The notes: generated by a model not told the origin, from the letters alone. Numbered from the stretch's first letter, positions 4,049 through 15,012 are shown. The stretch: DNA of 64,000 nt from Eubacteriales bacterium (GCA_045544995.1 JAZQAE010000023.1:43138-107137), one strand, 5' to 3'. A program made the numbers and translations.

Positions 4049-4402
4049 ATGGACATTTCCAATGAATTGGGTACTGTTGAAATATCCGAAGAGGTACTTT
4101 GTACGATCGCCAGCGTTGCCGCTAACGAAGTGGAAGGAGTTGCAGGACTTGCAGCATCTTTGGGTGGCAATTTGAAGGATTTGCTCACAAAGAAATATGC
4201 CGGAAAAGGCATCAACGTTGAGATGACGGAAGAGGGACTTGTCATTACGGCAAGTATCGTAGTGAAGTATAAATGTAATGTGCAGGACGTGGCCGTTAAA
4301 GTTCAAGATGCCATTTTGTCTGCCGTTCAGGATATGACCAACTATGAAGTCTCCGCTGTAAACGTGAACGTTGTAAATGTTCAGATCACAGAAGAGGCAT
4401 AA
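4049..4402 (+). CDS. Asp23/Gls24 family envelope-stress (alkaline shock) protein
   Basis: MDISNELGTVEISEEVLCTIASVAANEVEGVAG... is a typical Asp23 N-terminus. AGGAG lies 8 nt upstream of ATG 4049. Confidence 0.85.
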   Translation: MDISNELGTVEISEEVLCTIASVAANEVEGVAGLAASLGGNLKDLLTKKYAGKGINVEMTEEGLVITASIVVKYKCNVQDVAVKVQDAILSAVQDMTNYEVSAVNVNVVNVQITEEA

Positions 4403-4412
4403 TAAAACGTGA

Positions 4413-4445
4413 ACCCCCGAAGCATTCGCTTCGGGGGTGTTTTTT
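4413..4445 (+). terminator. Intrinsic terminator of the asp23-like gene
   Basis: ACCCCCGAAGC-ATTC-GCTTCGGGGGT followed by a T run. Confidence 0.8.
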
Positions 4446-9679: not shown

Positions 9680-10608
9680 AAGAAGCAACGAGAGAAAGCT
9701 ACGGTAAAGCTCTTGTGGAGTTTGCCGAAGAGTATGATCTTTATGTATTGGATGCCGACTTGGCTGCGGCTACCAAAACCTCTATTTTCAAGAAAGCTTA
9801 TCCTGAGCGGTTCATTGAATGTGGTATTGCTGAAGGTAATATGATGGGCGTGGCTGCCGGCCTGGCAACCACCGGCAAGACTGTTTTTGCCAGTAGTTTT
9901 GCAATGTTTGCGGCTGGTCGTGCTTATGAGCAGGTCCGCAACTCCATCGGTTATCCCCATCTGAATGTGAAGATTGGTGCAACCCATGCCGGTATCTCTG
10001 TCGGTGAAGACGGCGCTACTCATCAGTGCAATGAAGATTTGGCGCTGATGCGCACCATCCCCGGTATGGTTGTTTTAAATCCCGCAGATCCCGTTGAAGC
10101 CCGTCTCTGCGTAAAGGCTGCGATCGAGCATGAGGGTCCCGTTTATCTTCGTTTTGGCAGAATGCCCGTTGAGTCTATCTTTGATGAAAATTATAAGTTT
10201 GAAATCGGGAAGGGCGTTGTTCTGCAGGAAGGCAAGGATGTGGCGATCGTTGCTACCGGTTTGATGGTGGCACGTGCTGTTGAAGCTGCCGAGCTTCTGA
10301 AGAAGGACGGCATTGAGGCAACTGTAATCAATATGGCTTCCATTAAGCCTATTGATAAAGAGTTGGTTCAGCAGTATGCTGCAAAGTGCGGTGCTATCGT
10401 TACCACCGAGGAACACTCCGTTATCGGCGGTTTGGGTAGTGCAGTTTGCGAAGCTGTCAGCGAAACGGGCGGATGCCCGGTTATTCGCCACGGCGTTGAA
10501 GACTGCTTCGGTAAGAGCGGTCCTGCTGCCGATCTGTTGAACGTTTTTGGCTTGAATGCCGAGGGTATCGCAGAAAAGGCGAAACTTGCTATTTCTTTGA
10601 AGAAATAA
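9670..10608 (+). CDS. tkt: Transketolase, C-terminal (pyrimidine-binding) subunit
   Basis: FIECGIAEGNMMGVAAGLA... is typical of a split transketolase. Overlaps the N-subunit stop. Confidence 0.9.
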   Translation: MSLKEATRESYGKALVEFAEEYDLYVLDADLAAATKTSIFKKAYPERFIECGIAEGNMMGVAAGLATTGKTVFASSFAMFAAGRAYEQVRNSIGYPHLNVKIGATHAGISVGEDGATHQCNEDLALMRTIPGMVVLNPADPVEARLCVKAAIEHEGPVYLRFGRMPVESIFDENYKFEIGKGVVLQEGKDVAIVATGLMVARAVEAAELLKKDGIEATVINMASIKPIDKELVQQYAAKCGAIVTTEEHSVIGGLGSAVCEAVSETGGCPVIRHGVEDCFGKSGPAADLLNVFGLNAEGIAEKAKLAISLKK

Positions 10609-10614
10609 TTTATA

Positions 10615-10648
10615 ATCGGCGCCGATCCAAGGTCGGCGCCGATTTTTT
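10615..10648 (+). terminator. Intrinsic terminator after tkt
   Basis: ATCGGCGCCGA...TCGGCGCCGAT followed by T6. Confidence 0.8.
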
Positions 10649-10659
10649 CTAAAATCCTC

Positions 10660-11316: not shown

Positions 11317-11350
11317 AAAAGCCCGGAAATGCAAGGCGTTTCCGGGCTTT
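11317..11350. terminator. Bidirectional terminator hairpin, copy A of a duplicated hairpin
   Basis: AAAAA-GCCCGGAAA-TGCAAGGCG-TTTCCGGGC-TTTT. Near-identical to 11641-11676. Confidence 0.75.
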
Positions 11351-11470
11351 TACAGACTGTCAAAAAAGTCCCCGACCGCAGAAAATGTAAAGAGCCAATA
11401 AGTTCATACCGGTTTTGCAATATAACGACGAGAAAGAGAAGCTGTTCTTTCCCGTTGTGCCTTTATAAGG

Positions 11471-11498
11471 AAAAAATCTGCATAGCGATGCAGATTTT
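11471..11498. terminator. Terminator-like hairpin inside the intergenic gap (better U-run on the minus strand)
   Basis: A6-ATCTGCAT-AGCG-ATGCAGAT-T4. Read on the minus strand, T6 follows it. Confidence 0.5.
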
Positions 11499-11598
11499 GA
11501 TTGGAATTTTCTGCTATCCGCCAAATCGCTCTCTACCGTACCCATGTACGCCGACGAGACCGCTTTGACGAATTCGGAAACATTTTTGAGAGTCTTCC

Positions 11599-11639
11599 CA
11601 ACGTGTCAAAGATAAAAAATAAGGTTCTTTGACACGTTG
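11599..11639. repeat. Perfect 14-bp inverted repeat (stem-loop, 13-nt loop)
   Basis: CAACGTGTCAAAGA...TCTTTGACACGTTG. No flanking U-run on either strand. Confidence 0.8.
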
Positions 11640-11640
11640 A

Positions 11641-11676
11641 AAAAATCCCGGAAATGCAAGGCATTCCCGGGATTTT
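11641..11676 (-). terminator. Terminator of the Cys-rich protein gene, copy B of the duplicated hairpin
   Basis: AAAAA-TCCCGGAAA-TGCAAGGCA-TTCCCGGGA-TTTT. The G..C to T..A difference from copy A is compensatory. Confidence 0.75.
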
Positions 11677-11677
11677 C

Positions 11678-12460
11678 TTAGCAATTGCCGTTCTCAGGCG
11701 GGAAGAATTCATTGGTGGGGAAGTTGAGTTTTTCAAAGAAACTGCAGGGCTCTTCCTCGCAAGGACCGGCACATTCTTTTTCGGGCAGACAGAATTTTGC
11801 CGCCGGGATCTTGACTTGTACGTCCCGCACGATGCGAACTACGCTGAATAGGCCTAAGGAGACTACCAACTTACGGTTGGCGGTATCGGTAAGTCCGTCG
11901 GGAAAACGTGCGGCAACGCAATCAGGAATATTTAAGGTATCGTAGTCCGAGCAACAGCAATTGCAAGAAGGATTTACAATGCGGGTGTTCAAGACGATGG
12001 GATCCACCACTTCAACCTCTGCTACCGGCAGATTGCCGATCTGGGTGCAGGCGGGATCGCAAGCGTTGTTGCAGGCGGAAGAAAAGGTGGTAGTACTTCC
12101 TTCGCTTCCGTAAAGAATGACCTTTTTATTGAAGTAGGAAAGACCTTCAATGATGGTGGGACGTGTATTTCCGGTATAAACCTCAAAATCGGTTTTGAAG
12201 TAAAACATCATATCAACGCCGTAAAATCCCTTGTTAAAGGGAACATCTTCCAGATTTACGTCAGTCCAGATCAATTCGGAGCGGCGGGCACGGACGTTGA
12301 CCGCATTATCGATCAGCGTTTGGTCCCCGGCACTTAAGTACACACGCATATCAGAAAGACAGTCCTTATCTTTACAGGTGTCGTAGATCTTTTGTACGTT
12401 TACGCAAATTTCCTCATCATAGTTTTGAACACAGCAGTTTTCGTTGTTGTTAATATCCAT
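11678..12460 (-). CDS. Cysteine-rich hypothetical protein (260 aa, 18 Cys); possible spore coat/crust component
   Basis: Long ORF with GGAGG 5 nt upstream of the ATG. Cys clusters at the N-terminus (NCC, ICVNVQKIYDTCKDKDC), the middle (CNNACDPAC, SCNCCC) and the C-terminus (CLPEKECAGPCEEEPC...NC). I recognise no family. Confidence 0.7.
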   Translation of the reverse strand: MDINNNENCCVQNYDEEICVNVQKIYDTCKDKDCLSDMRVYLSAGDQTLIDNAVNVRARRSELIWTDVNLEDVPFNKGFYGVDMMFYFKTDFEVYTGNTRPTIIEGLSYFNKKVILYGSEGSTTTFSSACNNACDPACTQIGNLPVAEVEVVDPIVLNTRIVNPSCNCCCSDYDTLNIPDCVAARFPDGLTDTANRKLVVSLGLFSVVRIVRDVQVKIPAAKFCLPEKECAGPCEEEPCSFFEKLNFPTNEFFPPENGNC

Positions 12461-12553: not shown

Positions 12554-12582
12554 TTCTTCATAATCATTAAAGGATGTTTAAT

Positions 12583-13170
12583 ATGAAACGCTTAATAGTT
12601 TTGCTGATTGCAATCACAATGCTTTTGGTGTCCTGCGGCCCTGCATTCAACGAGGAAGAGCAGACTCTAAAACAGTTTGTAGATGCAATGAAGGTTTATG
12701 ACACCACAGAGATGTCGGAATTTTTGACGGAATTTCCGGATAATACGCCGTATGTCTATTTGGACGATATTTTTAATGACGCTAAATATCAAGAGTTGTA
12801 TCGCTTGTTGTATACTGACATAGAGTATGCGGTCACATCGTCGGAAAATAACCGGTTAACGGTGGATTTTACGATGCCGAACGTGCAAAAACTCTATACT
12901 GATACGGCAGCAATGGTGATGAACTTGGCTCTCAGCGATGAAACCTTGGTGAATAAACTCAATGAAAACGAAGAAAACGGCATTGTTTTAATTCAGGAGA
13001 TGATGCTGGCTCTTGCAAAACAAGAGGGAAGCGTCGAGAGGATGACAAGGACGTTTACCTTGACCTTTGAGCGAAAAGGGACGAAAAAAGTAATTGTTTG
13101 CGACGATGAATTACGTGCACTTTTGACAGGGAACTTTTTTCTGTCTAAGAATACAAAACTACCTGAATGA
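12583..13170 (+). CDS. Putative lipoprotein of unknown function
   Basis: Signal peptide with lipobox MKRLIVLLIAITMLLVS-C-GPAF. ATG 12583 has better SD spacing than 12574. Confidence 0.75.
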   Translation: MKRLIVLLIAITMLLVSCGPAFNEEEQTLKQFVDAMKVYDTTEMSEFLTEFPDNTPYVYLDDIFNDAKYQELYRLLYTDIEYAVTSSENNRLTVDFTMPNVQKLYTDTAAMVMNLALSDETLVNKLNENEENGIVLIQEMMLALAKQEGSVERMTRTFTLTFERKGTKKVIVCDDELRALLTGNFFLSKNTKLPE

Positions 13171-13222: not shown

Positions 13223-13786
13223 ATGAACGAACCTATTTTTAACCTTGGATCCGGAATTGAAAACTTAGATGCAAAGATGATGGAAAGCCGTAAGATCCTT
13301 GCTTTTGGAGCTTTGGACGAGAAATTGGCATGTCAGATTATTGCTAAAATGCTTTATTTGGCAGAAGAAGATGCGAAGGCTCCTATTACGCTTTATATCA
13401 ATTCTATCGGCGGCGCTGAGACAGAGATTTTGGGAATTTACGATGTGATGAAGAATCTTTCTTGTCCCGTGGAAACCGTATGCGTCGGAAAGGCGCACGG
13501 TCTTTCTGCTTTATTACTTGCCGGCGGTGCGAAGGGGAAGCGTCAAGCTTATGCGAATAGTGAGATCATGCTGATGCAAGTGGGCCGTGATCGTACCTTT
13601 GGTCAGGCATCTGATATTGAATTGGAGACGGAGCATCTTCTTCGTATGAAAAAGCGGGTAAACCACCTCTTGGCCTCATTATGCGGCAAATCTGAGGAGG
13701 ACTTGGCCGCCGATCTGGAACGGAAACATTGGCTTTTTGCGGATGAAGCAAAGGAATACGGTTTGATTGATACGGTAATTGACTAG
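13223..13786 (+). CDS. ClpP-family protein lacking the Ser-His-Asp triad (ClpR-like pseudo-protease)
   Basis: Collinear with ClpP (LYINSIGG..., ...KGKR..., ...EAKEYGLID). The catalytic positions read G (AHG-LS vs AAS-MG), M (MLM-QV vs MIH-QP) and K (ERK-HW vs DRD-NF). Confidence 0.75.
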   Translation: MNEPIFNLGSGIENLDAKMMESRKILAFGALDEKLACQIIAKMLYLAEEDAKAPITLYINSIGGAETEILGIYDVMKNLSCPVETVCVGKAHGLSALLLAGGAKGKRQAYANSEIMLMQVGRDRTFGQASDIELETEHLLRMKKRVNHLLASLCGKSEEDLAADLERKHWLFADEAKEYGLIDTVID

Positions 13787-14057
13787 GGTGGAGCAAATAA
13801 TCCAAACCCGCCTCAAAGCGGCATATTTCGGTGCTTTTTACCCAATTTATTCTTGCAAGGCGACAGCCTTGCTTCGCCTAAATTGAGCAAAAATCTCTCG
13901 AAATCGTCTTGCTTTTAGGTCAAAGATTTCAAAAAGTGCGGATTTTCGTTCAATCAAAGCAAAAACGCAGTTAATCCTGTCGGATTAACGAGGCTTTTAA
14001 TGAAGAGTGAGCGGAAATCCGCCTTTTTGAAACGAGTTCGGATTATTCGTTCCACCC
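13786..14057. repeat. 272-bp non-coding element bounded by 22-bp imperfect inverted repeats (19/22), TA-flanked, with nested internal hairpins
   Basis: GGGTGGAGCAAATAATCCAAAC (13786-13807) pairs with GTTCGGATTATTCGTTCCACCC (14036-14057). Internal helices lie at 13855-13872, 13938-13949:14011-14022 and 13970-13989. Confidence 0.7.
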
Positions 14058-14065
14058 TATGGATG

Positions 14066-14105
14066 GCCCACAGATTGAATTTTCTGTGGGCTGTTTTACT
14101 ATTTT
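14066..14105 (+). terminator. Terminator/attenuator-like hairpin in the leader of the MBL gene
   Basis: GCCCACAG-10 nt-CTGTGGGC followed by TGTTTTACTATTTT, 14 nt upstream of the MBL start codon. Confidence 0.55.
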
Positions 14106-14118
14106 GGGGGGTGATGGG

Positions 14119-15012
14119 TTGAAAAAACGCCAAAAAAAGGATCTTATAAAACTTATTGGAATTGCAGTATTTATTGCGGTCGGTATTCTCTCTGCTTTCT
14201 ATGCTAATGAGGAAAGCCTCTCTCCTGCGCCTTCTGATAATATTTCCGAGAATCATTTTGTCGATTTTATTGATTGCGGACAGGGGGACAGTACACTGTT
14301 GGTTTCTGATGGCGTTGCTACTTTGGTTGATGCAACTACTGGTGAAGAGGCGGAAAAGGTACTGGATCACCTGAAAAAGCGTGGAATTCAAAAGATTGAT
14401 CATTTTGTGTTGACACATCCCCATGAAGACCATATCGGCGGTGCGGAAGAAGTTTTGAAAAAGTTCCAGGTTGAAAACATTTATATGAAACGTCCTACTG
14501 TCGGAACAGAACCTACCACTTCGGTCTATTTGAATTTATTGAAGGAAATCAAAAGGCAAGGAAAAAAGGTTCATGCTGTTCAGCCGGATGATCAGTTTCA
14601 ATGTGGAAAATTTGAGATGTGCTTTTTGGGGCCGGTGGAGGAATATAAAGATTTAAACGATCAGTCGTTGGTATTGCAAGCGAGATATGGGGAAGTTTCT
14701 TTTCTCATCACAGGAGATCAGGAAACTCCGGCAGAAAACGATTTAGTTGCTCGTCGTGGATTGGCATTGAAAAGCACTGTTCTAAAGGTTGGACATCATG
14801 GGAGCAGCACCTCGTCCGGCAAAACGTTTTTGAAGGCTGTGGCACCGCAATATGCGGTGATTTCCTGTGGAAAAGGGAATACATACGGTCATCCCCATCG
14901 CAGTTTGATATCTCGTTTGGAAGACCAAAATATCGTTTATTATCGAACTGATACGCAGGGGACGATTACTTTTTATACGGATGGAGTTCATTTGAAGGAG
15001 GAAACGTCATGA
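14119..15012 (+). CDS. Membrane-anchored MBL-fold hydrolase, homolog of the ComEC C-terminal domain
   Basis: TTG start with SD GGGGGTGAT 7 nt upstream; the ATG at 14059 lacks an SD and would include the hairpin. N-terminal TM, then DCGQGDS...LTHPHEDHIGG...KVGHHGS motifs. Confidence 0.8.
   Translation: MKKRQKKDLIKLIGIAVFIAVGILSAFYANEESLSPAPSDNISENHFVDFIDCGQGDSTLLVSDGVATLVDATTGEEAEKVLDHLKKRGIQKIDHFVLTHPHEDHIGGAEEVLKKFQVENIYMKRPTVGTEPTTSVYLNLLKEIKRQGKKVHAVQPDDQFQCGKFEMCFLGPVEEYKDLNDQSLVLQARYGEVSFLITGDQETPAENDLVARRGLALKSTVLKVGHHGSSTSSGKTFLKAVAPQYAVISCGKGNTYGHPHRSLISRLEDQNIVYYRTDTQGTITFYTDGVHLKEETS

Follow-up and report, generated by a model that had tools for sequence, protein, structure and literature searches.

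What is the hairpin-dense segment that separates a ClpP-like gene from a metallo-beta-lactamase-fold (MBL) gene in the Eubacteriales bacterium assembly GCA_045544995.1? The segment occupies positions 13786-14057 of the 64,000-nucleotide stretch analysed here (JAZQAE010000023.1:43138-107137, hereafter the window), and it is followed by a terminator-like hairpin, a ribosome-binding site and a start codon. A preliminary description, made from the DNA alone, gave prominence to a cis-regulatory RNA leader of the MBL gene and named as further readings a MITE (miniature inverted-repeat transposable element) and an invertible segment. Our analysis points with good confidence to a MITE of an undescribed family from uncultured Clostridia; its insertion duplicates a 2-bp TA target, as IS630/Tc1-mariner-type transposases do. 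Empty orthologous sites, dispersed copies and the TA duplication support this reading, including the suggestion that the stop codon of the upstream gene was made at the junction. The parts of the element are the following.

13786-14057, plus strand: body of the MITE, 272 bp, non-coding (276 nt with both TA dinucleotides).
13784-13785: left copy of the TA target-site duplication; TA stands at both ends in seven of the eight full copies.
14058-14059: right copy of the TA target-site duplication, from sequence inspection and comparison of copies.
13786-13806, plus strand: left terminal inverted repeat, which supplies the 5′ strand of closing stem P1.
14037-14057, plus strand: right terminal inverted repeat, which supplies the 3′ strand of P1.

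The closing repeats of 22 bp, their TA flanks and their coordinates were as first described. The left repeat, GGGTGGAGCAAATAATCCAAAC (13786-13807), matches the reverse strand of 14036-14057 at 19/22 positions, with 3 mismatches, and none of 100 shuffled sequences contained two matches to it. Complementarity of the ends reaches further, to arms of 46 nt (13784-13829 and 14014-14059) at 78%. Each terminal repeat is laid out as a conserved GGGTG end, a variable co-varying block and then TAATCCGAAC, and no homology was found between the left and right arms of the element. Coding capacity is absent, as all six frames contain stops, and the longest frame common to the copies is only ~65% identical as protein vs 80% as DNA.

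Three features of the locus lie next to the segment.

13223-13786, plus strand: ClpP-like gene, 187 aa; Pfam CLP_protease, E = 7e-51.
14061-14096, plus strand: intrinsic terminator of the ClpP-like gene, found by terminator scan; ancestral and outside the element.
14119-15012, plus strand: MBL gene with a TTG start; Pfam Lactamase_B.

We compared the window with three syntenic contigs, L018, L019 and L020, which were chosen via homologues of the ClpP-like protein (84%, 80% and 77% identical to that of the window, respectively). The gene order of the window, ClpP-like, MBL, DUF3006, SpoIVA and ComEC, is kept in all three as far as SpoIVA, and ComEC follows in L019 and L020, where the contig extends far enough. 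The spacer between the ClpP-like and MBL genes measures 93 nt in L018, 55 nt in L019 and 89 nt in L020, and the element is missing from all of them. Directly 3′ of the TAA stop, each relative has a terminator hairpin (GACCCGCAG...CTGCGGGT or GCTCACAG...CTGTGAGC), and the window without 13786-14059 aligns throughout to these contigs, including the hairpin GCCCACAG...CTGTGGGC at 14066-14091. Because the orthologous hairpins directly follow the stop in the relatives, hairpin 14066-14091 is evidently the ancestral terminator of the ClpP-like gene, displaced 274 nt downstream by the insertion, and the element evidently went in between the stop codon of that gene and its terminator. The present TAG stop (13784-13786) consists of the target TA and the first base of the element, G; the ClpP-like orthologues have the same final residue, ending in ...VIE or ...VI, and then TAA. 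The closest available relative of the locus is a 9.7-kb Logan contig, whose ClpP-like protein (P0133) is 92% identical and ends in ...VIE.

Copies at other loci were also recovered, in addition to the empty sites of L018, L019 and L020. There are eight distinct full-length copies, the window included, 63-94% identical, plus two fragments. The full copies are those of the window, L001, L021, L022, L023, L024, L025 (L026 is the same locus from another sample) and L027. A repeat-pattern scan of 185,579 species genomes gave matches in metagenome-assembled genomes (MAGs): a goat-rectum Clostridia MAG has a full copy, 80% identical and with unrelated flanks (L001), and two fragments with 95.6% identity to the window copy are spread over contigs L002 and L003 of one Eubacteriales MAG. 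When six-frame peptides of the element were used as protein query, they led to two gene-caller open reading frames (ORFs) traversing copies L021 and L022, and a search of a representative library with the spurious ORF P0122 led to ten further such ORFs. Four of the ten were recovered as DNA and yielded four distinct full copies (L023, L024, L025 and L027); six more copies are known only as spurious-ORF peptides, with differing flanks. The terminal-repeat scan had a cut-off of 18/26; seven of the eight full copies passed it, and in each of these 22-25 of the 26 positions agree between the two terminal inverted repeats.

The copies adjoin unrelated genes. They are found 5′ of a ParA/NUBPL-type ATPase gene, flanked by pyrophosphatase and acetyl-xylan-esterase genes, 3′ of a sugar-transferase gene, beside a tRNA and a fucosidase gene, and inside pnuC. 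Two are intragenic, namely the copy in pnuC (L021) and one in a recombinase-like gene, where the element (L024 144-487) splits the DUF4368 domain at the 3′ end of the gene (profile positions 2-44 of 67). The bases beyond the TA vary among copies (GAC, TAC, CTA, GCT, CCA, GGG, GTA). Removal of the element and one TA from L021 restores an intact pnuC frame (...AANDIVLIALWIMATL...), and the Pfam NMN_transporter match of the repaired gene extends from 2-144 to 2-175 of 175 profile positions. Because this excision repairs pnuC, the TA is a true 2-bp target duplication. At the level of sequence comparison, these results demonstrate insertion, mobility, also into genes, and duplication of TA.

Some copies merit a separate word. 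In L001, the element (4080-4420) separates a promoter-like TTGACT-17-TATACT from the ribosome-binding site of the ParA/NUBPL-type ATPase gene, and as judged from this arrangement it would be transcribed there as a 5′ leader. The two fragments are complementary, L002 139-345 corresponding to window 13854-14059 and L003 331-398 to window 13784-13851, with breakpoints 2 nt apart, which suggests a rearrangement through one former copy. No second copy was found within the window by pattern, blastn or nhmmer, and neither PLSDB plasmids nor INPHARED phages matched the element in blastn searches. Exact look-ups of the window's ClpP-like and MBL proteins, and of P0001, gave no contig. Scans of viral and JGI metagenome contigs with the right-repeat pattern returned only chance matches, apparently unrelated and probably coding DNA, and L004-L017 and L030 were discarded as chance pattern matches.

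These two bodies of evidence bear directly on the leader that had been the headline of the preliminary description, in which a riboswitch or attenuator would control the MBL gene via read-through of hairpin 14066-14091. The arrangement does look like one, in that a Shine-Dalgarno sequence and a start codon come after a multi-helix structure and a terminator-like hairpin, and several of these parts are real. The Shine-Dalgarno sequence GGGGGTGAT (14107-14115) and the TTG start at 14119 agree with the N-termini of the orthologues in alignment, and the terminator scan confirmed the hairpin itself; it has no part in an attenuator, being the old terminator of the ClpP-like gene. A promoter-like TTGATT-16-TAAAAT is present between the ClpP-like terminator and the MBL gene in L018 (~700-750) and L020 (~10600-10650), and it is lacking in the window (14092-14118) and in L019; because of this lack, expression of the MBL gene in the window and L019 probably depends on terminator read-through, which would suit a leader. 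A leader is nevertheless excluded in practice because the orthologous spacers are empty in three syntenic relatives and the copies lie in unrelated contexts, two of them inside ORFs. Rfam gave nothing above noise, either for the window copy (Rfam 15, gathering and E-value scans) or for the seven other copies (gathering), the noise including microRNA-like long hairpins with E near 1, and the structure has no strand preference, as described below. We consider this reading extremely unlikely: the MBL gene is a downstream neighbour only, and it is not regulated by a conserved leader.

The invertible segment fares no better. Here a site-specific recombinase would flip the segment at its inverted repeats, and the geometry, in which some 230 nt separate inverted repeats 22-46 nt long, fits that of gut-bacterial invertons; Correia MITEs have also been reported to invert (PMC10969869). 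Against it, no conserved sigma-70-type promoter was found inside the element on either strand, and none of the neighbours scanned, which are the four downstream genes as far as ComEC and two ORFs on the upstream side, encodes a recombinase. L025 and L026, one locus in two independent assemblies, have the same orientation and identical sequence, and it is transposition and not inversion that accounts for the TA duplication and the empty sites. We find an inverton hardly credible.

Accepting the element as a MITE leaves the question of its hairpins. The 276-nt element folds at -111.3 kcal/mol as RNA vs -63.8 +/- 5 for shuffled sequences (z = -9.5, 0/200), and as DNA the fold has z = -8.4. RNAalifold on the eight copies gave 101 base pairs, with 94.5% of cells paired, arranged as a closing stem and two hairpin arms of ~110 nt.

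13784-13806 with 14037-14059: closing stem P1, 23 bp, formed by the pair of terminal repeats.
13810-13920, plus strand: left hairpin arm, with helices 13810-13838/13890-13920 and 13844-13884 and the tip hairpin 13855-13872.
13927-14032, plus strand: right hairpin arm, with helices 13927-13955/14005-14032 and 13962-13998 and the tip hairpin 13970-13989.

The helices listed in the preliminary description are recovered in part. The conserved fold of the eight copies includes hairpins 13855-13872 and 13970-13989 as well as helix 13938-13949/14011-14022 of 12 bp, the last lying within the longer helix 13927-13955/14005-14032. The helix at 13808-13821 and the alternative pairing at 13858-13879 exist in the window and are outside the conserved fold, which pairs 13810-13838 with 13890-13920 in place of the local helix 13808-13821.

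Compensatory changes are found in all six helices, terminal repeats included. Helices 2-4 of the left arm have 17 compensatory pairs (RNAalifold and pair counts on the eight copies), and helices 5-6 of the right arm have 14 and are 97-98% paired. Two-sided changes that keep the pair occur at 41 pairs vs 21.4 +/- 2.6 after shuffling (0/500), and at 5-9 in controls with slid partners. The variable block of the terminal repeats differs among copies, yet the two arms of each copy agree (GAGCAAA/GAACGAA in the window, ACAAGAG/ACAAGAG in L021 and AGCATTC/AGCATCC in L022). Together, these alignments demonstrate that the fold, a closing stem with two long arms, has been kept by compensatory changes across the family.

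How the pairing was kept can be approached by comparing close and distant copies. L022 and L023, which are 94% identical, differ by 1 compensatory vs 5 one-sided pair-breaking changes, and subfamilies that are 63-70% identical differ by 17-23 compensatory vs 5-10 one-sided pair-breaking changes. Because near-identical copies differ mostly by pair-breaking changes and distant subfamilies mostly by pair-preserving ones, we infer that the pairing matters for the spread of the element and not for a function in the host at individual sites. Selection would then act on pairing along the propagating lineage, and resident copies would decay; the counts behind this are low, and it falls short of proof.

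The preliminary description had also held that the plus strand must be the RNA, and here the family gives a different answer. Over the union of both-strand folds there are 38 G.T and 42 A.C cells, conserved G.T being offset by conserved C.A, and the consensus fold of the minus strand (-126.8 kcal/mol) is no worse than that of the plus strand (-118.6 kcal/mol). In seven of the eight copies the minus-strand fold has at least the stability of the plus-strand one, so strand bias is absent.

Equal folding of both strands and conservation of hairpins over sequence would be accounted for by an IS200/IS605-type palindrome-associated element, whose sub-terminal hairpins would be recognised by a Y1 HUH transposase that mobilises it as single-stranded DNA. 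Elements of the IS200/IS605 family are not known to have terminal inverted repeats or a target duplication, and they insert 3′ of a fixed tetra- or pentanucleotide. The present element has ends complementary over ~23 bp, TA at both ends and nothing conserved beyond the TA, and we judge such an origin to be very improbable.

A different proposal extends the MITE reading, by taking the conserved three-way fold, as RNA or single-stranded DNA, to be the functional unit. It could take two forms, a single-stranded mobilisation intermediate or an RNA module on TA-targeting ends, acting as a small RNA, a transcript stabiliser or a substrate of RNase III. The compensatory changes in all six helices, including terminal repeats that diverge in sequence and remain complementary, speak for it, as does the better conservation of paired than unpaired columns (mean identity 0.74 vs 0.62). 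Further support comes from an inner right-arm hairpin common to a second TA-flanked MITE family with unrelated ends, and from the orientation of the copies found by DNA pattern, four of four being co-oriented with their flanking genes. On the other side stand the lack of strand bias, the failure to find a conserved internal promoter or terminator, and the apparently neutral decay of resident copies. Loops also evolve faster than stems, unlike in ligand-binding or catalytic RNAs. Template-switch correction in DNA quasi-palindromes could moreover mimic compensation without selection, which also counts against the proposal. We regard it as unlikely. With the same reserve, we may speculate that the fold rather than the sequence is what the element needs to spread, that it is mobilised or acts as folded single-stranded DNA or RNA, and that the inner right-arm hairpin is a functional module which two or more MITE families have acquired, families that target TA, differ in their ends and include one in a phage-like contig.

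Returning to the MITE reading, a transposase supplied in trans would recognise the terminal inverted repeats and insert the element at TA, duplicating the TA. This transposase may be a TA-specific DDE enzyme of the IS630/Tc1-mariner type, an assignment for which the TA duplication is the only basis. In the window, the target TA would have lain at the ClpP-like stop codon, 5′ of the gene's own terminator, so that the ClpP-like gene now appears to end in a TAG built at the junction. Its transcript should then carry a 274-nt, nearly fully paired 3′ extension ahead of the old terminator.

Several points weigh against this account. No autonomous element with these ends was found, as pairs of TA-RGGYG...CRCCY-TA no more than 4 kb apart in all recovered DNA were MITE copies only, and because of this the transposase family is unproven. 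The high copy number per genome that might be looked for was not seen, with 1 copy in the 64-kb window and 0 in ~40 kb of close relatives, and the genome scan, which used exact patterns, ended with only two MAGs, one of them (L002 and L003) represented by fragments. Excision of the element and one TA at the window site leaves GAC TAT, without a stop, and every orthologue, including the 92%-identical one, stops at that very codon. Because of this mismatch, either the base 3′ of the right TA mutated after insertion, or the ancestral end, or our reconstruction of it, was slightly different here. Finally, classical double-stranded cut-and-paste transposition has no need of covariation in the sub-terminal repeats and internal helices.

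Comparison with known elements places the family among small non-autonomous repeats. Stowaway-type MITEs, which are eukaryotic, and IS630/Tc1-mariner elements such as ISY100 resemble the present element in duplicating a TA target, in their terminal inverted repeats and in a strong tendency of the DNA to form secondary structure; the IS630 link goes no further than the TA duplication. The ISY100 transposase is described as binding its own terminal repeats (PMC2170065). RUP of Streptococcus pneumoniae also inserts at TA and has been attributed to IS630-Spn1 acting in trans (PMC2229807). Like the present element, it is a Firmicute MITE with terminal inverted repeats and TA insertion; as far as a comparison by description can tell, it differs in being 107 bp long, in having ~108 copies in one genome and in having ends that resemble a known insertion sequence, whereas the element here has 276 bp, a three-way fold, an apparently low copy number and no parent insertion sequence that we could find.

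Correia (CREE) elements are likewise small, bounded by terminal inverted repeats and found beside and inside genes, and their insertions are flanked by TA. They are ~100-160 bp long, belong to Proteobacteria and carry promoters and an IHF site, whereas the present element has two long hairpin arms and no conserved promoter. In Neisseria, paired Correia repeats, once transcribed, form a stem that is cleaved by RNase III, and for MITEs other than the present one a stable structure in the transcript is likewise on record (PMC10969869). The best precedent for the covariation seen here comes from the Bacillus cereus group, where bcr1, a transcribed Firmicute repeat of MITE-like character, keeps a cruciform-like structure through compensatory base-pair changes; it differs in length (~155 bp vs 276 bp) and in its 5-bp direct-repeat flanks, vs 2-bp TA here (PMC3184786).

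For annotation, the lesson of this locus is that what looks like a riboswitch with its terminator can be a transposon scar, the terminator belonging to the upstream gene. The work also adds an undescribed MITE family from uncultured Clostridia to the catalogue of mobile elements; in the text of a 2024 review of prokaryotic MITEs, neither "Clostridi" nor "Firmicutes" occurs. The main interest lies in the strength of the fold conservation and in a hairpin module common to a second MITE family, and if the conservation reflects a requirement of mobility, it bears on how small non-autonomous elements are recognised.

The right junction has a further consequence for gene calling. An ATG at 14059-14061, made of the A of the right TA and the flanking TG, is in frame with the MBL gene and opens a 317-aa ORF that crosses the terminator, and in the orthologues the gene begins where the window has its TTG at 14119. 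Gene callers could misplace the MBL start at this ATG, and the 317-aa reading is spurious. The window has a G+C content of 43%, and the ORFs upstream of the ClpP-like gene (12574-13170 and 11678-12460) had no match in a Pfam scan. The genes at the locus, from ClpP-like and MBL to DUF3006, SpoIVA and ComEC, mark the host as a Firmicute that forms spores.

Two other mobile repeats were met in the course of the analysis. The second TA-flanked MITE, of ~176 bp with ends GGGCAACACCGC..., is found twice in the viral contig IMGVR_UViG_3300038805_000571 (L028 3103-3278 and L029 6421-6597), the two copies being 95% identical. It shares with the present element the inner right-arm module, AAAACGCAG-stem-loop-stem-CGAGyATTTT with its enclosing helix, and differs in having another terminal repeat and no left arm, so that only this module is common to both. 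In the DNA recovered, the ends of this family were found only at that element's own termini.

The other lies in the window itself, where a 35-nt palindromic terminator occurs twice (11317-11351 and 11642-11676, 80% alike) with an insert of ~290 nt (11352-11641) in between. L019 has one terminator and ~40 nt between the same two convergent genes. The insert has no Rfam match, and part of it (11467-11610) is 81% identical to L002 1195-1338, in another gene context; from its sequence it looks like a second, unrelated mobile repeat or a small-RNA locus.

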